DNA from: a virus
Length of the DNA: 64,000 nt
Reading direction: 5' to 3' (one strand)
Virus record (IMG/VR): IMGVR_UViG_3300025880_000014
Span: 2,458 to 66,457 of that record
The notes under the pieces were generated by a model. The model had not been told where the DNA came from. It worked only from the letters and a program-made list of their open reading frames with translations, and searched no databases. Position numbers and translations under genes: made by a program. Positions 40,777 through 56,361 of this stretch are shown in pieces. The stretch's first letter is position 1; each line of letters starts with the position of its first letter.

Positions 40777-41370
40777 TTATTTGTAATGTCCTCCTCCTAG
40801 CCATAAGACAAAAGATTTTCTAGTACCTTTAGTTACGGGTTTAACTGAGTGTAACATATAACTTGGAAATAAGACTACATTTCCTTTTCCTCGAGGAGCG
40901 GTCAATACATTTGTATCTAGAGATTCTCCACCTAGCCAAAAGCATAAATCTCCACCTTCGTATTCATTACTATCAGACAATTGAACAGTAATAGATACCT
41001 TTCTAATAGATAAATTCTTATCTCCAACGTCTTGGTGCCAATCATATTTACCAAACTCAGACGCTTCATATTCAGTATATTGAATTAGCTCAGGAGCAGT
41101 ATGTAAATCGAAATTCCATAGGGTTTGATTTGCTTCAGTTGCCATGGCAATTAATTTTTCATAAAGCCATGCCCATTCTTCGCTCTGTGGAATCCATTTA
41201 ATATTAGATTTTCTGTCTTCTGTTTCTCCACCTTGAGTTTCTGCTCGAACGTATTCAATATTAGCAACCCCTTGCTCAATACTTCTTAATTCTTCAGCTG
41301 AAAATCCTTGATCAAACCAGTAATACTGTTGAGCTTCGTTTTGTTTTGGTTCAAATGTAAAATTATTCAT
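40777..41370 (-). CDS. 2OG-Fe(II) dioxygenase (prolyl hydroxylase / PKHD-like)
   Basis: YDWHQD...RKVSITVQLS...YEGGDL...LFPSYMLHSVKPVTKGTRKS, giving HxD...H...R. Confidence 0.9.
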   Translation of the reverse strand: MNNFTFEPKQNEAQQYYWFDQGFSAEELRSIEQGVANIEYVRAETQGGETEDRKSNIKWIPQSEEWAWLYEKLIAMATEANQTLWNFDLHTAPELIQYTEYEASEFGKYDWHQDVGDKNLSIRKVSITVQLSDSNEYEGGDLCFWLGGESLDTNVLTAPRGKGNVVLFPSYMLHSVKPVTKGTRKSFVLWLGGGHYK

Positions 41371-43216
41371 CTTCTCTATATGTTATATTTACTGCACCTT
41401 CTTCTTCACCAAATCTAGATCTTGCGTTAATAGGCCATTGTGGATCCTCTTCATATGCCCAATCATGCTGACCTAATTCTTCAAATCTTTCTTTAATTCT
41501 TTCATTATATCTTGAAGCGATTGTACGTGTTCTTCTTTGTATATCTGCTCTAGATAGATCATGTGTATTTCTATGACCTTGATTACTATATAAAAATTGA
41601 ATATAGCTTAACTTAGGTATCTTACACATGATAGTGTTTAAGAATGTTCTAATAATTAATTCGTAATCATCAACAACTGTTAAACTTCTATTATGTCCTC
41701 CGATTGCAAAGTATGTAGATCTTCTCCACGCTCTAATGTGATTAGGAACTCCAACAATGTGTCTAATTGTTTTTGGATTAATATTCTGTTGATTTGCAGG
41801 ACTTAGCATTCTACCTTGATATTCTTCTTCTCTATAATTACCATATCCTAATGCAAAACCAGGACCGTATTTTTGATTTTCCCATTGTTCATTTACTTCT
41901 GCAGTATCACCGTAAAAGAATCCGCATTCAGGGTGTTTTTGTGCGGCGTTATGTAAATCCTGTGCGCATGTTACTGCGAGTAAATCATCGTGATCTAGTT
42001 CTGCGATAATATATCCTCTAGCCATTGCGTTTGCTCTCCACTTGACCTCTCCGATAATCCCACCTGATTTTTCTCTAAAATCGTATAGCTTAACTCTAGG
42101 GTCATTTGCTGCAATCTGCTCGGCAATCTTAAGTGTTTTACCACCATCAGTTGAATCGTTCATTAATACCCATTCCCAGTTGTCATACGTTTGAGCAGCG
42201 ACTGAGTTATATGTGTTTATTAACTTTTCACCTGTGTTATATATTGGAGTTGTAAAAGATATCATGCTATGATCGTCCATATTTGTCGGATCTAACATTG
42301 CATTTTCAGAAACATTATACGCAATATCTCCTACATTTTTTAAATCATTATCATTATCTATATTGATCCATTTTCTCCTAAATTGAAGAGGTAGTTTTGA
42401 TAGATATCTAAAATCAGAAGAACTCTTTCCTCGAGTTACTATTGCATCTGGTTTAAAACTGGATATTTTTTTTCTAATATCAGTATCATCCTTTGCATAT
42501 TTAACCTCTAAGTTGTCATCCTCGTAATCAAGTATTTTAGTAGTTTTCATTACTGGTTCTCCAGGTCCTATATATAAAATCCTAGGTAGTTTAGGTGTTG
42601 ACACTTTTTCTAATTCATTGTAATATGAAAGAATTTCATTAATCCAAACGAATGTATCTGGGTGGTTCTTATATACTTCTTCGATAAAGTAACCATCTGC
42701 TGCATAATCTGCTGTGAAACCATATTTTTCAAAAAGCTCTGATCTAAATAATATTTGAGCTATGTCTGTTTTTCTGAAACCAGTAGATTCTGGAGTAGAT
42801 TCTCTGTATTTTAATCCGGTAAAATCTTTACCATCAACTGCTTGTCCAACCATTATGATTTTCTTTTCAGAATTTACAGGTAGCATTACGAAATCCTCGA
42901 CTCTTTGATAAAATTCAGGATGCATTATATTGTCGTCATCTAATAAATAAAACCACGAATGATCTAAGCTCCTTATTAGACTGGTTGTTTCAGGGTACAT
43001 CATCCCGCCATGTTGTCCTTTAATAAAATGTATTGTTGTATTTGACTGATCTAAAATAGATAATAGATTCGCATCAATATCCTTCAGAGCACCTGTGTCA
43101 AACATAATGTGCCAATGTACCTCTACTCCTCTTGTTTTAGAAGTATCGAATACAGTTGGTTGTATTTTTAATAAATTAGATGTTCTAGTACATCTTGTGA
43201 TTACGTTAATTTTCAT
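41363..43216 (-). CDS. Tandem GT-A (GT2-like) glycosyltransferase, two catalytic domains
   Basis: N-domain FYLLDDDN and ADYAADG; C-domain SFTTPIYNT, WEWVLMNDST, ELDHDD, VVDDYEL. Confidence 0.85.
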   Translation of the reverse strand: MKINVITRCTRTSNLLKIQPTVFDTSKTRGVEVHWHIMFDTGALKDIDANLLSILDQSNTTIHFIKGQHGGMMYPETTSLIRSLDHSWFYLLDDDNIMHPEFYQRVEDFVMLPVNSEKKIIMVGQAVDGKDFTGLKYRESTPESTGFRKTDIAQILFRSELFEKYGFTADYAADGYFIEEVYKNHPDTFVWINEILSYYNELEKVSTPKLPRILYIGPGEPVMKTTKILDYEDDNLEVKYAKDDTDIRKKISSFKPDAIVTRGKSSSDFRYLSKLPLQFRRKWINIDNDNDLKNVGDIAYNVSENAMLDPTNMDDHSMISFTTPIYNTGEKLINTYNSVAAQTYDNWEWVLMNDSTDGGKTLKIAEQIAANDPRVKLYDFREKSGGIIGEVKWRANAMARGYIIAELDHDDLLAVTCAQDLHNAAQKHPECGFFYGDTAEVNEQWENQKYGPGFALGYGNYREEEYQGRMLSPANQQNINPKTIRHIVGVPNHIRAWRRSTYFAIGGHNRSLTVVDDYELIIRTFLNTIMCKIPKLSYIQFLYSNQGHRNTHDLSRADIQRRTRTIASRYNERIKERFEELGQHDWAYEEDPQWPINARSRFGEEEGAVNITYREDE

Positions 43217-43227
43217 TTAATGTGGTT

Positions 43228-44160
43228 TTATTGTTCAATGTCAAAAAAGAACATGTGGAAAAATCTTGCATTATCAATTGCATCTCCAAAGTATTCAGTT
43301 GCTGCGTGTAATTGCGATGAGTTAAATATTACTAGTCTATTATATACGTTTCCAATATCATCAATCTTTTCAAATTGAGTTCCATCGTAGAAGTTCATTT
43401 CTTTATTAGTACCTCTGAATGTATCTACGTATTCATCTCCCATTCTAGATTCTTGACCCGGAAACGATGAAATTCCTGTAACTTTACTTCGATACATTGC
43501 AGTTCCTGTTTGTGGAGGTGCGTCTGGGGTTAAGTAAACCATTGCAGCATACATTTGACTATCTACATGGTATACTATAGGTTGATCTGCTGTACAGAAT
43601 TGAAATACACCATTAGCGTATCCACCATTGTTCCAGTTTGTTATTTTTCTACCTAATACTTCTTCAAGTTTTTCCTTAGTGCCATCTATAATATATCTAG
43701 ATTGAGATCTTTGTCCTTTGTGATATTTAGACGGTAAAAACTCTAAATTATTCATAGCATATTCTCTGACTAAATCAGGATCTGCATAGAAATTATCAAC
43801 AACAATAACGTCTTTATCTGTTTTATTAAATCCAGATGAAGAAGCTGGCCATTTTGCTAAAGAAATAAGTTCAACTGGCGCTGCATTATTTAAACTAATC
43901 CATAGTTTTTTCGTAATATCTTCGTGTAGAATCATTATATTAAATCCTACATTTTCCGGAATTGTTCCTTTATAAAAAGAAAAAACATCTGGCCTTTTTT
44001 CCCATTCAATATTCAAGGATTTTCCATCTAATAGAACGTCAGTTACTATAGTATCTTTAGTTATTGAACCTACCCATCCTCTTGCGTACCAATATCCATC
44101 GGTGCCTTTTTTAATAGAATCAATGTTTAATTTTACATTGTTTAAATTAGTTTCGTGCAT
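43228..44160 (-). CDS. 2OG-Fe(II) dioxygenase-like protein (DUF6445-like) with an extra N-terminal domain
   Basis: VVDNFYADPD.VRE, YHVD...AAMVYLTP...GT, YNRLVIF...LHA, R.FHMFF. Confidence 0.75.
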   Translation of the reverse strand: MHETNLNNVKLNIDSIKKGTDGYWYARGWVGSITKDTIVTDVLLDGKSLNIEWEKRPDVFSFYKGTIPENVGFNIMILHEDITKKLWISLNNAAPVELISLAKWPASSSGFNKTDKDVIVVDNFYADPDLVREYAMNNLEFLPSKYHKGQRSQSRYIIDGTKEKLEEVLGRKITNWNNGGYANGVFQFCTADQPIVYHVDSQMYAAMVYLTPDAPPQTGTAMYRSKVTGISSFPGQESRMGDEYVDTFRGTNKEMNFYDGTQFEKIDDIGNVYNRLVIFNSSQLHAATEYFGDAIDNARFFHMFFFDIEQ

Positions 44161-44265: not shown

Positions 44266-46860
44266 TTATATTTGCCCTTTGAGGCCTCCACCAGCGCCTC
44301 CGGTTTGCGTAACTAATCCATTAACGAATGTGACATTGTGTCCCGTACTAAAGTAAATGGTTTCACTAATCCCACTAGTTGGTCCGTTAGTTCCTTGAGA
44401 TCCTCGAGGACCCTTTACTCCCGCAGGACCAAGTTGGCCCGTATTTCCAGTAAATCCTTTATAACCTTGTGCTCCATTGGTACCTTTAGCTCCTGGAGCT
44501 CCTTTAGCTCCTTGAGAACCATTATTACCCTTAAGACCCTGTGGCCCTCTTGGTCCGGTGCTACCATTTAGTCCTTTATAACCTGTTGGTCCTACTAGCC
44601 GTGCTCCTTGTGGTCCTCTATATCCAACTCCTAGACTACTACCAGTAGTTCCTTGGAATCCTCGAACTGTTCCAGTTGGTCCTTTATAGCCGGTAAGTCC
44701 TTTAAATCCTGTATAGCCTGTAATAGTAGATCCAGTGGTTCCTTTTAAACCCTGTGGCCCGACATATCCTTGAACTCCTTTTGGACTTGCTCCAGTATTA
44801 CCTTGTGCTCCTTGAGGTCCAGTATATCCTTTTGCTCCTCCTGGTTGTGATCCTTTAAGACCTTGATCTCCCTGAACACCAATAAATCCAATATACCCCT
44901 TAGGCATTGCTCCTTTAGCACCCTGATTTCCTTGGGCTCCTTGTGGTCCTCTATGTCCAGTTGGAGAATCTCCAATCGGTCCGGTGTTACCATTTAGTCC
45001 TTTATAACCTGTAACTCCTTTATATGAGGTTGGACGTACACCTTGAGTTCCCTGTGGTCCTCTTGGTCCAGTGCTTCCGGTTGGTTGTGCTCCTTTATCT
45101 CCTTGAGTACCTTGTGCTCCTTGTGGTCCTCTTGATCCTCCGGGCTGTGCTCCTTTATTTCCTTGGAATCCTCTTGGTCCTGTTACTCCAATAAATCCTT
45201 TTGGCTGAGCTCCTGTATATCCTTGAACTCCTTGAGCTCCTTGAACTCCTCTAAATCCTGTTGGATTTGCTCCTTGGAAACCTCTTTCTCCATTAATTCC
45301 TGTGTAACCGGTTGCTCCTGTTGGTGAAGATCCTTGAACTCCTCTATAACCAGTTGCTCCAATAAATCCAATATACCCCTTTGGCATTGCTCCTTTTAAT
45401 CCTTGGAAACCTCTTGGTCCTGTTGGTCCAGTTGGCGAAGTTGGTCTAGCTCCTTGGAAACCTCTTGGTCCCGTATTTCCAGGATCACCGATAATTGCGT
45501 CATATGCAGGTCCTGTTGGTCCTGTATATCCTGTTGGTCCGTTTGGTCCTATGTGTCCTTTTGGACTTGCTCCGATATTACCCTGTGCTCCTTGAGATCC
45601 TTTAAGACCAGTATATCCCTTTGGACTTGGTCCTGTATATCCTGTTGGTCCGTTTACTCCTTTATCTCCTTGGAATCCTCTATTAGTACTTCCTTGAGAT
45701 CCTCTAATACCCTGTACTCCTTGAAACCCTCTTGGTCCTGTTGGTGAATTACCAATAGCTCCTTGAAAACCTCTTGGTCCAGGATCTCCTGTTTGAGCAG
45801 CTGGCGTACTTCCAGTATTTCCTTGAAAACCTCTTTCTCCGTTTAATCCTTTGTCTCCAACTGGATTTGCTCCTTGTGCTCCTTTAAAACCAGGATAACC
45901 TTCAGCTCCTTGAAAACCTTTTGGACTATTTCCAACGTCTCCTTGAAAACCTCTATCTCCGTTTAATCCTTTGTCTCCAACTGGATTTGCTCCTTGTGCT
46001 CCTTTAAAACCAGGATGACCTTCAGCTCCTTGGAAACCTTTTGGTGAATCACCAACATTTCCTTGAAAACCTCTGTCTCCAGTTTGTCCTACTTGTGCAG
46101 TTTGAGTTGAACCCTGTGCTCCTTTTAGTCCGGTAGCACCCTGTGAACCTTTATGTCCTTTTTGATTTGTACCTGCAGAACCTTGAAATCCTACATGTCC
46201 AACAAAACCAGTTGCTCCACCTGGATTTAAACCCGTAGTACCTTGATCTCCTTGAAAACCTCTGAAACCAGTTGCTCCTGTTAATTGATCTCCCTGAAAC
46301 CCTCTTGGTCCATCAGGTCCAATATCACCAACGTAAGCTGTAATTACATTACCCTGTGATCCAGTTGAACCTTGATCTCCTTTTATTCCTTTAAGACCAT
46401 TAGTTATTTTACCTGCATCTCCATCTGTTCCTTGATTTCCTCTAAAACCTTCTGGTCCTTCTGGTGAATCTCCAATTGTTCCTTGGAATCCTCTAAAACC
46501 TTGATCAGCAGTACCTTTATTTCCTTGAAAACCTCGATCTCCTTGAAAACCTATATTACCTTCATAACCTTGATGTCCTTGTGGACTGTCTCCTTGAAAA
46601 CCTCTGAAACCAGTATCTCCAACAGGTTCTAAACCTGCAGATCCTTGAACTCCTTTATCTCCTTGAAAACCTCTATCTCCTTGAAAACCTTGAGCTCCAA
46701 CAATACCTTGAAAACCTTGATCTCCTTGAAAACCTTGAGCTCCAACAATACCTTGGTCTCCCTGGTCTCCTTTCAATTCAGGATAGTTATTAGCATCAAA
46801 GTTACCAGTATGTAAGGGAGTTTCTCCCCCTACAAGTGATCCTGTATTTAATTTTGCCAT
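44266..46860 (-). CDS. Collagen-like fibre protein, chain A (864 aa), with periodic interruptions
   Basis: Gly-X-Y from aa 31 to about 828, with 34 one-residue-short interruptions. Confidence 0.9.
45841..46080. repeat. 120-bp tandem duplication in collagen A (40 aa = 14 triplet equivalents)
   Basis: 45841-45960 vs 45961-46080: 110/120 identical by manual comparison. Confidence 0.9.
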
Positions 46861-46900
46861 GTTATTTTTATTCTTTTTTTATATATAATTAACTTATTGG

Positions 46901-49558
46901 TTATTGGATAAATCCGTTTGAAACAATATAGCCTGTTCCATTATCGTCTGTGAAAAATCCGTTAAAACCATTACCTATAGATCCACTTCCATGATAACCT
47001 TGTGGTCCTCTTGGTCCTGTTGGTCCATATCCGACTGGTCCCATACTTCCAGTTAATCCTCTTGCTCCTGCTGTTCCAGCTCCTCCGCCAGATCCTTGGA
47101 ATCCTCTTGGTCCTGTTGATCCATTTGCTCCTTGATATCCGACTGATCCTACTATCTGATTTCCTTGTGCTCCTGTTGCACCCTGGGCTCCTGGTATTCC
47201 TGTATATCCTTGAGGTCCTCTTGCTCCTTGAACTCCGTTTGGTCCTTTATATCCTGTTGGTCCATTATTACCTTGTGGTCCTCTTGACCCCGTTGGTCCT
47301 GTTGAACCTGTAGCTCCCTGTGGTCCCGTATTTCCTTGTGATCCCTGTGGACCAGTTGGTCCTTTATAACCTCCACCTCCGGCGGATCCGGATCCTCCTT
47401 GATATCCTCTTGGTCCTGTATTACCAGTGGCTCCTTGTGCACCTTGGAATCCTGATATTCCTTTGTTTCCAGTGGCTCCTTGTGTTCCTCTATCTCCCAC
47501 TGCCGAAGTAGTTCCAGTAAGTCCTTTATTACCAATAAATCCAGTATAACCTTTTGCTCCAGTTACTCCTTGTGCTCCAGTTGATCCCTGTGCTCCTTGA
47601 TTTCCTTTAGCTCCAGTATTTCCCTGTGCTCCTGTTAATCCAGTTGCTCCTTTTAATCCAGTATATCCAGTTACTCCCTGTGCTCCTTGATTTCCTTGTG
47701 ATCCGTTAACTCCTGTTTTACCAATAAATCCAGTATAACCTGTTGCTCCAGTTCCTCCTTGTGAACCGTTAACTCCAGGATAACCAGTTGGTCCCGTTGG
47801 TCCTTGATTTCCAACGGCTCCAGTTCCTCCAGTTGCTCCTTTAGCTCCAACAAGTCCAGTATATCCTTTTGGTCCGGTTGCACCCTGTGCTCCTGTAAAT
47901 CCAGTAGGTCCTGTTGAACCTTTAGCTCCCTGTGCTCCTTGTGCTCCTTTTACATTAGTAAATCCTTGAGGTCCCGTTGGCCCTTGAGGACCGGTGTTAC
48001 CAACCGCAGATGTTGTTCCTGTTAATCCTTTAAAACCAGTAGCTCCTTTTGCTCCTTGTGCTCCTTGTACTCCTGTTAATCCTTTAAAACCAGTAGCTCC
48101 TTTTGCTCCTTGTGCTCCTTGTGCTCCTTTAGGTCTTTGAGATCCCTGAGGTCCCTGAGCTCCTTTTGCTCCTTGAGAACCTTTATTACCAGTAGCTCCT
48201 TTAGCTCCTATTGCTCCCTGGAATCCTCTTTCACCAAGTGAACCTTGATTTCCGATAACACCCTGGGGTCCAGTTGATCCCTGTGCTCCTTGATTTCCTT
48301 TTACTCCTTCAAATCCTGTTGAACCAACAATTCCTATATAACCAGTATCTCCTTTGAAACCGGTAAATCCTGTAGATCCTTTAGCACCCTGTGCTCCAGT
48401 AACTCCTTGGAATCCCTTTGGTCCCGTAACTCCTTGTGGTCCTCTTCCACCAGCTCCGCCAGTTAATCCTTGATAACCAGTTGCTCCAATATTACCTTTA
48501 GCTCCTTGATTTCCTTTAGCTCCAGTATCTCCTTTAAGTCCGTTAGATCCTGTAATACCAACATACCCAGTAGAACCTGTAGCTCCTGTTGCTCCTTGAT
48601 AACCAGTTGCTCCAATATTACCTTTAGCTCCTTGATTTCCTTTAGCTCCAGTATCTCCTTTAAGTCCGTTAGATCCTGTAATACCAACATACCCAGTAGA
48701 ACCTGTAGCTCCAGTATCTCCTTGATAACCTGTTGCTCCAGTAGATCCTTGCGCTCCTTGAGATCCAGTACTTCCTTTATCTCCTAAAAGACCTTGAAAT
48801 CCTCTTTCACCAGGATCTCCTGGTAAAGAATCCGAAGCAGTTGCTCCTTTAAATCCTTTTTGTCCTGTTGAACCTTTAGCTCCCTGAGATCCTTTAACTC
48901 CATTAGTTCCAGGTAATCCTTCAAAACCGGTAGATCCTTTAGATCCCTGTGCTCCATCAACTCCGGTAAATCCTTTTAAACCGGTTGAACCTTGTGATCC
49001 TTTATTTCCTTTAACTGATGTTGCTCCTTTTGCTCCTTGGAATCCTCTTTCTCCAGTATCTCCTTGTGTACCTTGTGTACCTTTAATACCGACAGAACCT
49101 TGACTTCCTTGAAAACCTCTTTCTCCGTTAATTCCTTTTACACCCTGTGCTCCAGTAAAACCTTGGAATCCTTGAAGTCCAATAGAACCTTGATCGCCGA
49201 CTTGTCCTTGATAACCATTAGAACCATTAGGACCTAATATACCTGTTATTCCTTTTTCTCCTCTAATTCCAGTAGCTCCGGTAAAACCTTGAAGACCAGT
49301 AGATCCTTGATTACCTTTACTACCAGTAGATCCTTGATCACCTTGACTACCTTGATAACCCCCAGTTCCAACGAAACCTTGATTACCTGTATCACCTTGA
49401 TGACCGACACTACCGTCGGATCCAACAGATCCTTGGGATCCTTGAGATCCCAATTCACCGTTCGGTCCAATAAGCTGAGGAAAATTCGTGCTATTAAGGT
49501 TACCACTGTGTAATACGAGATTACCGTCTAACGTAGTACCTAAGATAAATTTTGCCAT
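46901..49558 (-). CDS. Collagen-like fibre protein, chain B (885 aa)
   Basis: Gly-X-Y from aa 31 to about 859 (277 triplet equivalents). Confidence 0.9.
48017..48124. repeat. 54-bp tandem duplication in collagen B ([15 protein letters not shown])
   Basis: Identical run starting at 48017 and 48071. Confidence 0.8.
48471..48722. repeat. 126-bp tandem duplication in collagen B (14 triplets)
   Basis: 48471-48596 vs 48597-48722: 123/126 identical. Confidence 0.9.
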
Positions 49559-49593
49559 GTTATTATTTTTATATTTTTATTTGTTTTATATTG

Positions 49594-52467
49594 TTATCCA
49601 ATATTTACACCGTTTTGGATAGTACGTACTCCACGCGTATGAAATATTTGACCGCTAAATCCTCCGGTTGCATTATTACCTTGATAACCCTGTGGTCCTC
49701 TTGCTCCGGTACCAGATCCACCCTGGACTCCTTGATAACCTTGTGGTCCTCTTGCAGGTGCAGGCTGTCCTCCAGCGCCTTGATAACCTTGAGGTCCTGA
49801 TGTTGCGGAAGCTCCTTTTGCTCCTTGTGTTCCTTGTGCTCCTGTTGCTCCTTTTAAACCTTGAGGTCCTCTTGGTCCTGCACCACCATTAAGTCCTACA
49901 TAACCTTGTGCTCCACGTGCTCCAACGTTTCCGTTTGCACCTTGTACTCCTTGAGGTCCTGTATATCCTTGAACTCCTTGAGCTCCCTGGGTTCCTTGAG
50001 CTCCTCTTACAGTACCTGCAGGTCCAATAAAACCTTTAAGTCCGGTTGAACCTTGTGGTCCTCTTACTCCCTGTGGCCCTGTTGGTCCTGTATATCCTTT
50101 TGGTCCTGTTGCTCCTTGGAATCCTCTGTGACCTGGCGCACCACTATAACCTTGTGGTCCAGTTAGTCCTTTATAACCCTGTACTCCTTGAGTTCCTCTT
50201 GCAGCCGCAGTTCCCTGTGGTCCAGTTATTCCTTTATCACCAGTAGCTCCTTGTGGTCCTCTTGGTCCAGTAGATCCTTTAAAACCTGTATCTCCTTTTG
50301 CTCCTTGTGCTCCTCTAATTCCTTGTGGTCCAAGATCTCCAGTAGGTCCAGTTGCTCCTTTAGGTCCGATATATCCGATATATCCTTTTGGTCCAGTTGC
50401 TCCTTGAGGTCCTTTAATTCCTTTTGCTCCAGTTGCTCCTTGATTACCCTTTGGTCCAGTTATTCCCTGAACTCCTTTTGCTCCTTGAACACCAATTGTT
50501 CCCTGAGCTCCTTGAGGTCCAGTATTTCCTTGAGGTCCTCTAATAGTTCCAGTACTTCCGGTTGCTCCTTGAAAACCTTTATTACCAGTAGCTCCGGTTG
50601 CTCCTTGATTACCTTTAATTCCTTGGAATCCTCTGTCTCCAGTTGCTGCAGTAGATCCTTTAAGACCTTGTGCTCCTCTAACTCCTTGATTTCCTTGGAA
50701 TCCTCTTGGTGCAGCAGTTCCCTGTGCTCCAGTATTTCCTTGAAATCCAATCTTTCCAGTTGGTCCTAAATCACCAATTGCTCCGGTATTTCCTTGAACT
50801 CCAATAAATCCTTTATCTCCTTTAATTGCACTTGGTGCGATATATCCAGTATCTCCCTGGAATCCTCTGTCTCCAGTTGCTCCTTGATTACCCTGTGCTC
50901 CTGTTACTCCAGTATATCCTTTTGCACCAGTAGTACCTTTAGCTCCTTGGAATCCTCTTGGTCCGCTAGATCCTTGATGTCCTCTTTCACCAGCATCTCC
51001 TTGAACTCCTTTTGAACCTTGTGGTCCAACTGCTCCAACAGATCCCTGTGCTCCTATTATTCCAGTGTTTCCTTGAACTCCAGTTGCTCCAGTTGCTCCT
51101 TTATCTCCAGTTGCTCCTTGAGGTCCTGTATAACCTTTTGCTCCTTGTGCTCCAAGAGGTCCTGTTAAACCTTTAGCTCCTTGATCTCCTTTGAAACCTT
51201 GATCTCCTTTAAGACCAACATTTCCAATAACACCTTGGTTTCCTTGAAAACCTCTTGGACCAGTGTTACCCTGTGCTCCAGTTGATCCTTTTAAACCTTT
51301 AGCTCCTTGATCTCCTTTGAAACCTTGATCTCCTTTAAGACCAACATTTCCAATAACACCTTGGTTTCCTTGAAAACCTCTTGGACCAGTGTTACCCTGT
51401 GCTCCAGTTGATCCTTTTAAACCTTTAGCTCCCTGTGATCCTTTAAAACCTCTTTCACCAATGATACCATCGGCTCCAGTAGATCCTTGATAACCTGTTG
51501 CTCCAGTAGATCCTTGTGTTCCTATTACTTTATTAATACCAGCGTCTCCTTGAGTTCCTTGATTTCCTTGAAAACCTCTGTCTCCTACGGGTCCGTTAAT
51601 ACCTGTTGTTCCTTTAATTCCTTTGTCTCCTTGGAATCCTCTGGCTCCATTTGAACCATTATTTCCTTTTGCTCCTTGAGGTCCTGTAAATCCAACGTCT
51701 CCTTGTGCTCCTCTGTTTCCATCAAGTCCTTTATAACCTGTTGCTCCAGTTGAACCTTTAAAACCTTGATCTCCGATTACTCCATCAGAACCTTGATCAC
51801 CTTTATAACCGGTAACCCCTTGATTTCCCTGAACTCCAATAGGTCCAGTAACTCCTTTGTTTCCGATAGATCCTTGGAATCCTCTGGCACCGTCTACGCC
51901 TGTTAAACCCTTAGTACCTTGAGTACCTTTAGTTCCTTGGTTTCCTTGGAATCCTCTTTCACCTTGATTTCCAACAATACCTTTAGATCCTTGAAATCCT
52001 CTTTCACCTTTAGCCCCAGTAGTACCTGAAATACCAATATCTCCTACTAATCCTTTACTACCACGTGATCCTTCACTACCAGTATCTCCTACTAATCCAG
52101 TATTTCCGAGAGAACCTTTATCTCCACGAAAACCTTCATCACCGGTATTTCCTTTTACTCCTTTTAAAGAAGAGAAATCACTAGGTGTAAAATTACCAGG
52201 TCTTAATATTAGATTGCCACCGATTGTTGAATCAGCCTTAAAGCTTCCGCCACCATCAAAAATACCACCCGCTATAATTGCGGAATCAGTACTCCTAATA
52301 GTTAACACATTCCCCGCAGGGAATGTGTTTAACTCTTCTAGGTAAGACGGCGTATAGACGATAGCTGAATCTTGGTCAATTCCTGCTCTGTTCGAGTTTT
52401 CATCGATCTGAGCCTGGAATTCTCCGGTAGATTGTACTAGTTTTATCGCTATTTTATTAAATGCCAT
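49594..52467 (-). CDS. Collagen-like fibre protein, chain C (957 aa) with a 102-aa N-terminal domain
   Basis: Gly-X-Y from aa 103 to about 932 (276 triplet equivalents). Confidence 0.9.
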   Translation of the reverse strand: MAFNKIAIKLVQSTGEFQAQIDENSNRAGIDQDSAIVYTPSYLEELNTFPAGNVLTIRSTDSAIIAGGIFDGGGSFKADSTIGGNLILRPGNFTPSDFSSLKGVKGNTGDEGFRGDKGSLGNTGLVGDTGSEGSRGSKGLVGDIGISGTTGAKGERGFQGSKGIVGNQGERGFQGNQGTKGTQGTKGLTGVDGARGFQGSIGNKGVTGPIGVQGNQGVTGYKGDQGSDGVIGDQGFKGSTGATGYKGLDGNRGAQGDVGFTGPQGAKGNNGSNGARGFQGDKGIKGTTGINGPVGDRGFQGNQGTQGDAGINKVIGTQGSTGATGYQGSTGADGIIGERGFKGSQGAKGLKGSTGAQGNTGPRGFQGNQGVIGNVGLKGDQGFKGDQGAKGLKGSTGAQGNTGPRGFQGNQGVIGNVGLKGDQGFKGDQGAKGLTGPLGAQGAKGYTGPQGATGDKGATGATGVQGNTGIIGAQGSVGAVGPQGSKGVQGDAGERGHQGSSGPRGFQGAKGTTGAKGYTGVTGAQGNQGATGDRGFQGDTGYIAPSAIKGDKGFIGVQGNTGAIGDLGPTGKIGFQGNTGAQGTAAPRGFQGNQGVRGAQGLKGSTAATGDRGFQGIKGNQGATGATGNKGFQGATGSTGTIRGPQGNTGPQGAQGTIGVQGAKGVQGITGPKGNQGATGAKGIKGPQGATGPKGYIGYIGPKGATGPTGDLGPQGIRGAQGAKGDTGFKGSTGPRGPQGATGDKGITGPQGTAAARGTQGVQGYKGLTGPQGYSGAPGHRGFQGATGPKGYTGPTGPQGVRGPQGSTGLKGFIGPAGTVRGAQGTQGAQGVQGYTGPQGVQGANGNVGARGAQGYVGLNGGAGPRGPQGLKGATGAQGTQGAKGASATSGPQGYQGAGGQPAPARGPQGYQGVQGGSGTGARGPQGYQGNNATGGFSGQIFHTRGVRTIQNGVNIG
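51165..51432. repeat. 126-bp perfect tandem duplication in collagen C (14 triplets)
   Basis: 51165-51290 vs 51291-51416: 126/126 identical, plus a 16-bp third partial copy. Confidence 0.9.
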
Positions 52468-52521: not shown

Positions 52522-55500
52522 TTAATCGAATGAGAATGTAATGTCTCCATTTGCATCTCTTTCAATTCTTGCCGTTGGGTTACCGTTAGCATCTTCGAAA
52601 TAAATAGCTTTATCATTGGCGATTGTTATTGAATCTCCATCAAATGCTCCAGTTTCTCCTTGGAATCCTTGATCTCCTTTAGCTCCAGTTAAACCCTGTG
52701 CTCCAGTATCTCCTTTGAAACCTTGATCTCCTTTGAATCCTTGGTCTCCTTTAGCTCCAGTTAAACCCTGTGCTCCAGTATCTCCTTTGAAACCTTGATC
52801 TCCTTTGAATCCTTGGTCTCCTTTAATACCTTGAATACCATCGTCTCCTTTAGTACCTTGAACTCCTTGAATACCTTGAATACCATCGTCTCCTTTGAAT
52901 CCTTGATCTCCTTTTAAACCAGTATCTCCTTTGAAACCTTGATCTCCTTTAAGACCTTGAATACCTTGAATACCATCGTCTCCTTTAGTACCCTGAACTC
53001 CAATAACTCCTTGTTCCCCTTGGAAACCTTGAATACCTTGCTCTCCAGTATCTCCTTTGAAACCTTGATCTCCTTTAAGACCTTGAATACCTTGAATACC
53101 ATCGTCTCCTTTAGTACCTTGAACTCCTTGAATACCTTGAATACCATCGTCTCCTTTGAATCCTTGATCTCCTTTTAAACCAGTATCTCCTTTGAAACCT
53201 TGATCTCCTTTTAAACCAGTATCTCCTTTGAAACCTTGATCTCCTTTAAGACCTTGAATACCTTGAATACCATCGTCTCCTTTAGTACCCTGAACTCCAA
53301 TAACTCCTTGTTCCCCTTGGAAACCTTGAATACCTTGCTCTCCAGTATCTCCTTTGAAACCTTGATCTCCTTTGAAACCTTGATCTCCTTTAGCTCCTAA
53401 AGTACCTGATTCTCCTTGGAAACCTTGATCTCCTTTAAGACCTTGAATACCTTGAATACCATCGTCTCCTTTAAGACCTGTATCTCCTTTAAGACCAGTT
53501 TCTCCTTGGAATCCTTGATCTCCTTTAGCTCCAGTATCTCCCTGGAAACCTTGAATACCTTGTTCTCCTTGATCTCCTTTAAGACCATCAATACCTTGGA
53601 AACCTTGATCTCCTTTAGCTCCAGTATCTCCTTGGAAACCTTGATCTCCTTGGAAACCTTGGAAACCTTGATCACCCTGTGCTCCAATTTTCATTGGTGT
53701 GAAAGATACAATAATTTGACCATTTGCTGATGGGATGTTCGCTGCGTACGCGTCGTTAGTCATGTGTTCCGCAGAAGAAGTACCACCATCGTAATTACTG
53801 TTTGAACCACCAACTCTTACCATGTCTACTCTAAGATCTCCTCTTCCGGCAGAACCTAAAATAATGGAAGCGTTTGATGCTTCATATAAATGATATTTAC
53901 TAGAGTCTCCATTCTTAGAAACTTTTACGTAAATTCTATCGTAACCATCAGATACCATATTTGTAAATAAAGAATTCATGTGGTTGATATCTTGCAATCC
54001 GTTTGCGATATCTGAGAACCACCATTCTTGAGAACCTCCATAAATAAATGAAGATGCTTCAGTATGTCCTAATTGATTAACGTTTGTGTATTTATTATCT
54101 GAGAAGGTAATACCATCATAAACAACTGATAAACCACCAGCGTTACCTACAGTACCTTGGAATCCTTGATCTCCTTGATCTCCTTTAAGACCTTGGAAAC
54201 CTTGATCTCCTTGGAAACCTTGGAAACCTTGATCTCCAGTTTCTCCTTGAATACCTTGTTCTCCTTGATCTCCTTTAAGACCAGTATCTCCTTGGAAACC
54301 TTGATCACCTTGGAAACCTTGATCACCTTGGAAACCTTGGAAACCTTGATCTCCTTTAGCTCCTAATGTACCATCAACTCCTTGGAAACCTTGATCTCCT
54401 TTAGCTCCAGTATCTCCTTGGAATCCTTGATCTCCTTTAGTACCCTGAACTCCGATAACTCCTTGTTCTCCAGTATCTCCTTTGAAACCTTGAATACCTT
54501 GCTCTCCAGTATCTCCTTTGAAACCTTGATCTCCTTTAAGACCTTGAATACCTTGCTCTCCTGTATCTCCTTTAGTACCCTGAACTCCAATAACTCCTTG
54601 TTCCCCTTGGAAACCTTGAATACCTTGCTCTCCTGTATCTCCTTTAAGACCAGTTTCTCCTTGGATACCTTGGATACCTTGTTCTCCAGTATCTCCTTTA
54701 AAACCTTGATCTCCTTTAAGACCTTGAATACCTTGAATACCATCGTCTCCTTTAAGACCTGTATCTCCTTTAAGACCAGTTTCTCCTTGGATACCTTGGA
54801 TACCTTGTTCTCCAGTATCTCCTTTAAAACCTTGATCTCCTTTAAGACCTGTATCTCCTTTAAGACCAGTTTCTCCTTGGATACCTTGCTCTCCTGTATC
54901 TCCTTTAAAACCTTGATCTCCTTTAAGACCTTGAATACCTTGTTCTCCAGTGTCTCCTTTGAATCCTTGATCTCCTTTAAGACCAGTTTCTCCTTGGATA
55001 CCTTGGATACCTTGTTCTCCAGTATCTCCTTTAAGACCAGTTTCTCCTTGGATACCTTGAATACCTTGTTCTCCAGTATCTCCTTTAGTACCCTGAACTC
55101 CAATAACTCCTTGTTCCCCTTGGAAACCTTGAATACCTTGCTCTCCTGTATCTCCTTTAAGACCTGTATCTCCTTGGAATCCTTGATCTCCTTTAAGACC
55201 AGTTTCTCCTTGGATACCTTGGATACCTTGTTCTCCAGTATCTCCTTTGAAACCTTGATCTCCTTTAAGACCTTGAATACCTTGTTCTCCAGTATCTCCT
55301 TTAAAACCTTGATCTCCTTTAAGACCTTGAATACCTTGCTCTCCTGTATCTCCTTTAAGACCTGTATCTCCTTGGAATCCTTGATCTCCTTTAAGACCAG
55401 TTTCTCCTTGGATACCTTGTTCTCCAGTATCTCCTTTAAGACCAGTTTCTCCTTGGATACCTTGAATACCTTGTTCTCCAGTATCTCCTTTAGTACCTAC

Positions 55501-56361
55501 AGTACCTTGAACTCCGATAACTCCTTGTTCCCCTTGGAAACCTTGAATACCTTGTTCTCCAGTGTCTCCTTTGAATCCTTGATCTCCTTTAAGACCAGTT
55601 TCTCCTTGGATACCTTGGATACCTTGTTCTCCAGTATCTCCTTTAAGACCAGTTTCTCCTTGGATACCTTGAATACCTTGTTCTCCAGTATCTCCTTTAA
55701 AACCTTGATCTCCTTTAAGACCTTGAATACCTTGTTCCCCAGTATCTCCTTTAGTACCTACAGTACCTTGAACTCCGATAACTCCTTGTTCCCCTTGGAA
55801 ACCTTGAATACCTTGATCTCCTTTAAGACCAGTTTCTCCTTGAATACCTTGTTCTCCTTGATCTCCTTGGATACCTTGGTCTCCTTGGATACCTTGATCT
55901 CCTTTTAATCCTTGATCTCCTTTAATACCTTGAATACCATCGTCTCCTTTGAAACCTTGATCTCCTTGAAGACCTTGATCTCCTGTATCTCCTTTAGTAC
56001 CTACAGTACCTTGAACTCCGATAACTCCTTGTTCCCCTTGGAAACCTTGAATACCTTGATCTCCTTTAAGACCAGTTTCTCCTTGAATACCTTGTTCTCC
56101 TTGATCTCCTTTAAGACCAGTTTCTCCTTTAAGACCAGTTTCTCCTTTGAAACCTTGATCTCCTTTAATACCTTGAATACCTTGTTCACCGGTATCTCCT
56201 TTAAAACCTTGATCTCCTTGAAGACCTTGATCTCCTTGAAAACCTTGAACCCCATCAATACCCTGATCTCCTTGGAAACCTTGATCTCCTTGTGTACCTT
56301 GATATCCGGATCCTTGATCTCCCTGAGGACCTGCGGTAGAAATATATGCTGAATATGCCAT
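52522..56361 (-). CDS. Collagen-like protein D (1279 aa): two Gly-X-Y tracts (about aa 11-741 and 893-1240) around a ~150-aa globular insert
   Basis: Built from GDQ/GFQ/GLK/GDT/GEQ/GIQ modules; almost Pro-free. Confidence 0.9.
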   Translation of the reverse strand: MAYSAYISTAGPQGDQGSGYQGTQGDQGFQGDQGIDGVQGFQGDQGLQGDQGFKGDTGEQGIQGIKGDQGFKGETGLKGETGLKGDQGEQGIQGETGLKGDQGIQGFQGEQGVIGVQGTVGTKGDTGDQGLQGDQGFKGDDGIQGIKGDQGLKGDQGIQGDQGIQGDQGEQGIQGETGLKGDQGIQGFQGEQGVIGVQGTVGTKGDTGEQGIQGLKGDQGFKGDTGEQGIQGIQGETGLKGDTGEQGIQGIQGETGLKGDQGFKGDTGEQGIQGFQGEQGVIGVQGTVGTKGDTGEQGIQGIQGETGLKGDTGEQGIQGETGLKGDQGFQGDTGLKGDTGEQGIQGLKGDQGFKGDTGEQGIQGLKGDQGFKGDTGEQGIQGIQGETGLKGDQGFQGDTGLKGDTGEQGIQGFQGEQGVIGVQGTKGDTGEQGIQGIQGETGLKGDTGEQGIQGIQGETGLKGDQGFKGDTGEQGIQGLKGDQGFKGDTGEQGIQGETGLKGDTGLKGDQGFKGDTGEQGIQGIQGETGLKGDTGLKGDDGIQGIQGLKGDQGFKGDTGEQGIQGIQGETGLKGDTGEQGIQGFQGEQGVIGVQGTKGDTGEQGIQGLKGDQGFKGDTGEQGIQGFKGDTGEQGVIGVQGTKGDQGFQGDTGAKGDQGFQGVDGTLGAKGDQGFQGFQGDQGFQGDQGFQGDTGLKGDQGEQGIQGETGDQGFQGFQGDQGFQGLKGDQGDQGFQGTVGNAGGLSVVYDGITFSDNKYTNVNQLGHTEASSFIYGGSQEWWFSDIANGLQDINHMNSLFTNMVSDGYDRIYVKVSKNGDSSKYHLYEASNASIILGSAGRGDLRVDMVRVGGSNSNYDGGTSSAEHMTNDAYAANIPSANGQIIVSFTPMKIGAQGDQGFQGFQGDQGFQGDTGAKGDQGFQGIDGLKGDQGEQGIQGFQGDTGAKGDQGFQGETGLKGDTGLKGDDGIQGIQGLKGDQGFQGESGTLGAKGDQGFKGDQGFKGDTGEQGIQGFQGEQGVIGVQGTKGDDGIQGIQGLKGDQGFKGDTGLKGDQGFKGDTGLKGDQGFKGDDGIQGIQGVQGTKGDDGIQGIQGLKGDQGFKGDTGEQGIQGFQGEQGVIGVQGTKGDDGIQGIQGLKGDQGFKGDTGLKGDQGFKGDDGIQGIQGVQGTKGDDGIQGIKGDQGFKGDQGFKGDTGAQGLTGAKGDQGFKGDQGFKGDTGAQGLTGAKGDQGFQGETGAFDGDSITIANDKAIYFEDANGNPTARIERDANGDITFSFD
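52650..53685. repeat. Low-complexity repeats (second collagen tract of D)
   Basis: Repeated ccttgaataccatcgtctcc and aaaccttgatctcc blocks. Confidence 0.85.
54150..56330. repeat. Low-complexity minisatellite of 9-bp-multiple modules (first collagen tract of D)
   Basis: Recurrent near-identical blocks such as ccttgatctcctttaagacc and ccttgttctccagtatctcc. Confidence 0.85.

Follow-up and report, generated by a model that had tools for sequence, protein, structure and literature searches.

Collagen rods occur in the fibres of phages and prophages. EPclA of Escherichia coli O157 carries the domains PfN, PCoil and PfC, and the end domains of phage collagen fibres studied to date differ from those described below (PMC3368898). 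Reviews present prokaryotic and phage collagens as homotrimers, and heterotrimers are seen as an invention of animals (PMC8968730). Here we analyze a window of 64,000 nucleotides, positions 2,458 to 66,457 of the IMG/VR virus record IMGVR_UViG_3300025880_000014, which comes from an uncultured marine phage and has four collagen genes, D, C, B and A, in tandem on its minus strand. We propose that the products of three of them, A, B and C, are the strands of one mixed collagen helix. An original prediction, made from the letters of this DNA alone, had assigned the selection of the three chains to short motifs shared by their ends. A literature search found no account of a heterotrimeric phage collagen, or of a collagen that carries the N-terminal motif of the phage T4 fibre protein gp36.

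How does the locus compare with the systems that resemble it most? In EPclA and in fibres that end in a Peptidase_S74 (S74) chaperone, as here, small non-collagen assembly domains flank a collagen rod within a phage fibre. Those fibres are homotrimers with larger, unrelated ends, however, and none of the three chains A, B and C has an S74, coiled-coil or PfC match in Pfam. The non-collagenous (NC) domains of animals (the type I C-propeptide, type IV NC1, type IX NC2 and C1q) offer another parallel: they too are terminal segments on three distinct, register-locked chains. The ends found here measure 25-36 amino acids against roughly 35-250, and specificity resides largely in charge pairs of the rod. 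No homology to COLFI, C4 or C1q was found in the ends of A, B and C; Pfam at E<=0.01 gives only Collagen. The original prediction regarded the shared ends as miniature NC domains. That view fails for the N-terminal motif; what survives of it is a common origin of register and the idea that the three chains belong together, as they almost certainly do. For the C-terminal peptides, a functional analogy to animal NC domains may hold.

Placing A, B and C in one collagen heterotrimer is well supported in silico, because their rods are matched, their insertions and deletions are coordinated, they share a lattice of breaks and their charges fit a single register. Relatives were retrieved with the N-terminus of C and with two degenerate DNA patterns for the N motif, the segment that precedes the first Gly of the rod. 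Eight further IMG/VR contigs have loci laid out like the window (D-C-B-A, then a DUF6445 gene and a glycosyltransferase (GT) gene); we call this layout W-type. Spans (Table 1) were counted in residues between the first Gly of the rod and the turn Gly near the C-terminus. Across eight related loci the rods vary between about 550 and 836 residues, and in most of these loci B and C agree to within 0-2 residues. Two further metagenome sets have rods (C/B/A) of 835/836/759 and 668/667/641 residues. One apparent counter-example, L050, in which A looked too short, was rejected: its A is 99.9% identical to that of G001 and is truncated where the contig stops.

Insertions and deletions are coordinated among the three genes. 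L011 has one tandem unit fewer per gene, which removes 40, 42 and 42 residues from A, B and C; L021 is shorter than G001 by 60, 63 and 63. Within a chain, such duplicated units show 93-100% identity; units of different chains are unrelated. Breaks in the Gly repeat of B and C coincide, partly at lineage-specific sites (permutation p 1.5e-4 in the window, 1.9e-3 in G001, 1.4e-3 in L021 and 0.12 in G002). Counted in triplet-equivalents from the first Gly, chain A loses one residue at each multiple of 7 triplets, and 23 of the 35 unique B/C breaks fall at 0 or 1 mod 7, that is, on the lattice of A (expected 10; p 5.6e-6). Seven triplets are also the axial repeat of the 7/2 collagen helix. Rod lengths shift by whole multiples of this repeat. 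The window and L011 differ by 14 triplets, G001 and L021 by 21, which in A amounts to 40 and 60 residues. Because these steps are whole axial repeats, the rotational setting of the two rod ends may be under selection.

Further evidence comes from the charge register. In a collagen helix with a one-residue stagger, Lys or Arg at the Y position contacts Asp or Glu at the X position one triplet on in the next chain, the well-known geometry of KGE and KGD pairs. From the trailing back to the leading chain the offset is two triplets, as follows from the stagger. Offset scans gave sharp peaks of axial pairs only at +1 from B to C, +1 from C to A and +2 from A to B, the pattern for B as the leading, C as the middle and A as the trailing chain (B-C-A). 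Same-chain +1 pairs are nowhere enriched and lie below background in most genomes. The B-C-A score is 45 in the window (of 73 acidic X residues), against a mean of 15.6 (standard deviation 3.3) for shuffled sequences, or z 8.8. It is 36 (of 48) in G001 (shuffle mean 10.3, z 9.4), 29 (of 39) in L021 (7.7, z 9.0), 38 in L011 (14.5, z 7.3), 22 in L014 (9.0, z 5.1) and 63 in G002 (39.1, z 5.0). In all six of these W-type genomes, B-C-A ranks first among the six heterotrimer registers and above all homotrimer scores (0-56). Paralogy cannot account for the pattern, since it would enrich same-chain pairs.

The pairs begin at triplet 0 and extend to triplet 160. Chain C always ends its N motif with L-K before the first Gly (7 of 7 lineages), and A starts its rod with G-D-Q in 6 of 7; in the B-C-A register the Lys of C and the Asp in the first triplet of A form a predicted C to A pair across the junction of motif and rod. 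All three rods are polar, with an N-terminal half rich in Asp and Glu and poor in Pro. In every chain and lineage, the distal third is rich in Pro at X and nearly devoid of acidic residues. Complementarity of net charge between the chains was considered and rejected: all three are net basic, and the signal exists only in position-specific axial pairs. Much of the chain selection appears to reside in the rod itself. Hartgerink and colleagues have reportedly designed ABC collagen heterotrimers that are held in a single register by axial Lys-Asp pairs. The rods described here use the same geometry, Lys or Arg at Y to Asp or Glu at X. They differ in being natural and about 277 triplets long, with 29-63 pairs, all chains net basic and one chain short a residue in every 7 triplets.

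Both the lattice and the charge code hold only if every chain is counted from its first Gly; the alignment without gaps of the segments before it, as claimed in the original prediction, is therefore structurally meaningful. That alignment was confirmed over 31 columns including the first rod Gly. Identity is 42% between A and B and 32% between A and C, N20 and G31 are invariant, and the similarity is far beyond chance. These observations support the view that A, B and C take their common register from the N motif as origin. Each chain type has its own version, kept across 7 diverged lineages, with 54% identity between orthologues and 36% between chain types.

What is this motif? A profile of 18 collagen-fibre N motifs matches T4 at one place in the whole genome, where gene 36 begins (E 1.6e-6, positions 1-21), and in the T4-like Cronobacter phage GAP161 matches only the starts of gp37 (3.4e-6) and gp36 (2.3e-4). 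With a copy from a single-gene locus, tblastn finds more than 1100 phage records, each at the first residues (Met1) of a distal tail-fibre gene. The N-terminus of T4 gp36 can be aligned with A, B and C under the pattern MA.LK.G.T.GG...[LW]H.GN[FL], which lies at Met1 in A and B and at residues 73-102 in C. Only these N-terminal 21 residues are common: PF03903, the body of gp36 (T4 residues 56-195), has no match in A, B or C, and the motif itself has no Pfam model. A search of the PDB with the motif profile gave no meaningful match, and no solved chain there matches T4 gp36. Single-gene collagen fibres, present on 8 of 19 IMG/VR contigs, likewise start with the motif, as does the S74 chain of a two-gene type described below. 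Directly upstream of the N-motif collagen gene, single-gene loci and the distant triples L033 and L036 have a gene of the gp35 family (phrog_1154, E 1e-6 to 1e-9).

Because of the profile matches in T4 and GAP161, the placement at Met1 and the gp35-family gene upstream, we conclude that the N motif is, by homology, the N-terminal joint of gp36 type that distal tail fibres of myoviruses carry in general, and not a collagen selector of the NC type. The original prediction named a usual occurrence in single-collagen loci as telling against it, and this is partly true of the N motif. In T4 gp36 and in gp36 and gp37 of RB43/GAP161-type phages, the same Met1 motif belongs to the proximal end of a trimeric distal fibre, at the knee (gp34-gp35-gp36-gp37). 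The present locus differs from T4 in that a collagen rod, rather than the beta structure of gp36, begins 9 residues after the motif, and in that three different chains carry it, in C internally behind a 72-residue extension. In GAP161 (L030:791-5211), gp36 (715 amino acids, with an S74-like chaperone tail) and gp37 (736 amino acids) both start with the MADLK motif. This suggests that T4-like phages of the RB43/GAP161 type have two alternative distal fibres that dock on the same knee.

At the other end, the three x-x-NG-x-x termini of the original prediction (TFVNGLV, IVSNGFI, TIQNGVN), like its other quoted strings, are all present in the translated open reading frames (ORFs), and the turn is conserved. 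The turn Gly is invariant in 11 aligned peptides from five lineages, and a second [FY]-[NS]-G element lies upstream. The skeleton reads [FY]-[NS]-G-x-hydrophobic, then 7-9 residues, then hydrophobic-x-hydrophobic-x-N-G-hydrophobic-hydrophobic; in two lineages the turn of chain C is G-G, not N-G. Orthologous peptides share 30% identity, against 16-19% between chain types, and the peptide of B is the best conserved (42% between orthologues). B-like, C-like and A-like versions recur in the distant triple of L033 and L036. The peptides adjoin the Pro-rich, charge-free segment of the rod. Since the distal third lacks the charge code, selectivity at that end, if there is any, would come from the C-terminal peptides. 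The foldon of T4 fibritin, a 27-amino-acid beta-hairpin domain with a [D/N]-G turn, trimerizes identical chains and has been used to nucleate collagen peptides. Similar size, a C-terminal site on a phage fibre and the [D/N]-G turn pattern are common to both; the foldon is a homotrimer, whereas there are three versions here, and no sequence similarity is detectable. A foldon-like knot of three chains that trimerizes and selects them is a plausible role for these peptides.

Chain C alone has an N-terminal extension, as had been noticed, although it measures 72 amino acids and not about 80. It is kept in all W-type relatives (7 lineages). A hidden Markov model search of 1.8 billion proteins with the N-terminus of C returned 8 matches, six of them fragments of C-type chains and two spurious repeat proteins, and a word-based protein search with the same segment returned none. 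Judged by these searches, the extension is confined to this phage group. The AlphaFold2 monomer model of residues 1-103 has a predicted local distance difference test score (pLDDT) of 40. No gene of the phrog_1154/gp35-like kind was found in this record or in four W-type contigs (up to 175 kb), and the loci without it are exactly those in which C carries the extension. Because each is present where the other is absent, a role for the extension as a single-copy attachment point is plausible.

We estimate a probability of about 0.6 that A, B and C form a 1:1:1 heterotrimeric distal fibre with a gp36-type joint, a charge code in its rod, a knot at its tip and the C extension as connector. This proposal draws on motif homology, co-variation, lattice and charge register, all determined in silico; the docking, the fold of the knot, the direction of folding and the part given to the extension are what we infer. 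The fibre would be about 240 nm long. At its proximal end, three copies of residues 1-21 of the N motif would dock it on the knee or on the proximal element, and the docked motifs would bring the first Gly of each chain to one common triplet layer. The helix would directly follow the second half of the motif (..N[YF]P..[KI]), whose last residue would join the inter-chain charge code. Chain choice and register would be settled largely in the N-terminal 60% of the rod, where Lys or Arg at Y faces Asp or Glu at X of the next chain. The three paralogous peptides have two N-G turns and hydrophobic residues in alternation; their most likely fold is a small beta knot of three chains, which would close the tip and provide selectivity there, like a hetero-specific foldon. 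Present once per fibre, the extension of C would probably act as an asymmetric connector, as monomeric gp35-like proteins do in relatives without it. A stronger version holds that the composition and register of this natural, non-animal ABC heterotrimer are fixed by start motif, proximal Lys/Arg-Asp/Glu code and complementary peptides, and that the latter are the smallest hetero-specific collagen trimerization domain known; we offer it only tentatively.

Several observations weigh against the mixed fibre or parts of it. Rods of equal length are in themselves no proof of a mixed helix: in the two-gene loci, the rod of the S74 chain X is as long as that of chain Y. The 7-triplet lattice could in part be inherited from a repetitive ancestor. 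In G002 the spans of B and C are 11 residues apart and the charge signal is weaker (z 5.0), and in L036 the best register is CAB and not BCA, with the same cyclic order and small counts. Fibres that are certainly or probably homotrimeric (single-gene collagens, T4 gp36, the S74 chain) start with the N motif as well, and therefore the motif alone selects nothing. The x-N-G-x pattern carries little information, and a profile of the 11 peptides found only unrelated chains in the whole PDB (E>=0.45). As to the connector, hhalign shows no relation between the C extension and the gp35-like protein, and the W-type contigs are incomplete, so that a gp35-like gene could lie elsewhere.

Could the same parts build other fibres? 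A, B and C might be three separate homotrimeric distal fibres, branching from one knee or side by side, with generic ends (a docking motif of gp36 type and a small C-terminal cap) and with lengths kept equal for functional reasons. Precedents exist: the generic N motif heads homotrimer-type fibres, GAP161-type phages have two motif-bearing fibres, one with an S74-like tail, and two-gene relatives pair an S74 chain with a second chain of equal rod (720/719, 693/694, 705/706, 488/491). Described prokaryotic collagens, moreover, are all homotrimers (PMC8968730). Separate homotrimers nevertheless leave unexplained why inter-chain charge pairs peak only at the staggered B-C-A offsets, why B and C agree to 0-2 residues and why A matches them in triplet-equivalents and not in residues; the same-chain KGD and KGE pairs that would stabilize them are not enriched and mostly fall below background. 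It is the charge register, not equal length, that separates the mixed helix from homotrimers, and we consider the latter improbable.

Two further arrangements appear less probable still. If the similarities of the ends were leftovers of duplication, the rod alone would direct assembly, and the ends would contribute neither to selection nor to trimerization. The strength of the rod charge code, the low-information C-terminal pattern and the evident paralogy of A, B and C are in keeping with this. Yet the chain-specific ends have been kept in lineages whose rods differ by as many as about 280 residues, and also in the distant triple of L033 and L036; the distal third beside the C-terminal peptides has no charge code, and the N motif is conserved family-wide as far as T4. 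We think such a history unlikely. Least probable is a serial D-C-B-A chain in gene order, in which the C-terminal peptide of each homotrimer plugs into the next N motif. Every segment has a start and an end motif, W-type gene order is fixed, the last gene, A, alone acquires an extra tail or Hint-like domain, and the long tail fibres of T4 are serial segments (PMC3004832). A serial chain, however, has no need of equal lengths, coordinated indels, a common lattice or in-register charge pairs. The gene order of the L036 type differs (B, C, A), and gp36 of GAP161 ends in an S74-like tail, so that the motif fibres of that phage probably dock on the knee and not on one another.

Table 1. Features of the collagen locus and spans in W-type loci. 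Positions are those of the window unless a locus is named; spans are in residues (A/B/C).
Feature	Position	Strand	Remarks
Chain A ORF	44266-46860	-	864 amino acids
Chain A C-terminal peptide	44269..44376	-	36 amino acids; ...F.NGLVT turn, then Gly-rich tail
Chain A rod	44377..46770	-	798 residues, 278 triplet-equivalents; residue missing every 7th triplet; trailing
Chain A N motif	46771..46860	-	residues 1-30, MAKL..GS.VGG...LH.GNF...NYP..K; ends at first rod Gly
Chain B ORF	46901-49558	-	885 amino acids
Chain B C-terminal peptide	46904..46981	-	26 amino acids; GFNG.F.DD......V.NGFI
Chain B rod	46982..49468	-	829 residues, 277 triplet-equivalents; leading
Chain B N motif	49469..49558	-	residues 1-30; B-specific LNSTN[FY]P kept in all lineages
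Chain C ORF	49594-52467	-	957 amino acids
Chain C C-terminal peptide	49597..49671	-	25 amino acids; G[FY]SG.I......TI.NGVNIG
Chain C rod	49672..52161	-	830 residues, 279 triplet-equivalents; middle
Chain C N motif	52162..52251	-	residues 73-102, internal; Arg/Thr for His
Chain C N-terminal extension	52252..52467	-	residues 1-72; candidate built-in connector; one per fibre if heterotrimer
Chain D ORF	52522-56361	-	1279 amino acids; separate collagen protein, own ends
Two-gene fibre loci	L067:1198-6220, L094:3875-7529, L099:4065-8922		also L061, L101
Span, window (W)			817/851/850
Span, L009 and L010			817/852/850
Span, L011			777/809/809
Span, G002			769/801/812
Span, G001			713/746/747
Span, L021			653/683/681
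Span, L014			554/574 (+172-amino-acid insert in B)/576

The record is 71.6 kb long, 24% complete by CheckV and about 32% G+C, and contains a myovirus baseplate gene. Collagen (PF01391) is the only Pfam family that matches A, B, C and D (223-581 bits; cut-off 27.2), and the ends of A, B and C match nothing in Pfam or PHROGs, where all matches are collagen-driven. Spacers of 35-54 nucleotides, rich in A, separate the collagen genes, which have similar A-rich leaders. No terminators were found between the four genes; scans for sigma-70 promoters and terminators gave no more sites than shuffled sequence. Downstream (3') of chain A lie genes for a DUF6445 protein, a 617-amino-acid GT2 protein and a 2-oxoglutarate (2OG)-Fe(II) oxygenase (window 40777-44160). 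This set is likely to hydroxylate and glycosylate the collagen. DUF6445 and GT genes follow chain A in every W-type and L036-type locus seen, and Lys is very common at the Y position of the rods.

Chain D had been said to have neither shared motif. It indeed lacks the N motif, but its C-terminal end also has an N-G turn. D starts with MAYSAYISTAGPQG and terminates in ...NGDITFSF; both ends are conserved and unlike those of A, B and C. Its length varies from 180 to 1279 amino acids across loci, uncoupled from the other three chains. The C-termini of D and D-like proteins (L033, L034, L018, L023) fit [ND]-G-x-[ILVM]-x-F-x-[FVIY] and resemble that of T4 gp34 (...KTVKFEWVE), and in loci with a gp35-like gene the D-like gene precedes it. 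The probable role of D is that of the proximal half-fibre, as an analog of gp34.

Besides the W-type loci, the IMG/VR contigs include two with the distant triple (L033 and L036) and the 8 of 19 with a single N-motif collagen gene, which has a globular C-terminal domain. A metagenome scan added 64 marine stretches with more of each kind, plus the two-gene type. The triple (L036:4363-9415, minus strand; also L033) sits behind the gp35-like gene, and all three of its chains have the N motif at Met1. The L036 rods are 489, 480 and 478 residues long: one gains a residue per 43, one loses a residue per 41 and one is unbroken, with breaks at coinciding places (168/170, 211/211, 254/252 and so on). 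In two-gene loci, the rod of chain X is unbroken and lies between the N motif and a C-terminal S74 homotrimer chaperone. Chain Y starts with a variant of the N motif, its rod contains deletions of one residue, and its tail of 63 amino acids is rich in Cys. Their rods differ by 1-13 residues (the four pairs above and 705/718).

Some chains contain additional domains. In L014 (8920-9507, plus strand) and L029 (173-841, minus strand), chain A runs past the ...NGLVT turn into a domain of about 150 amino acids that starts C[LI]..GT and ends ...ANGIVTHN. It resembles a mini-intein or Hint domain without a C-extein nucleophile, and its Pfam matches to the N and C blocks of inteins stay under the threshold. 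Such a domain could cut the fibre tip or transfer it covalently. Globular inserts of about 150-180 amino acids, for which Pfam has no family, occur in single chains: in B of L014 (5701-6231), in C of L086 and L074, and in D of the window (53680-54129). The L014 insert lies exactly at a lattice point (triplet 84).

If the mixed fibre is real, phages possess a heterotrimeric collagen helix whose register can be read from sequence, in dozens of natural length variants. Recombinant heterotrimers of defined register are a standing problem in biomaterials, and the short end modules and charge code would be usable as test objects. The locus fits the plan of the T4 long tail fibre, with D as the proximal half, a gp36-type joint and A, B and C as the distal half. 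On this evidence the N-terminal motif of gp36, as yet without a name, is a portable docking module that extends from T4 to marine jumbo phages.

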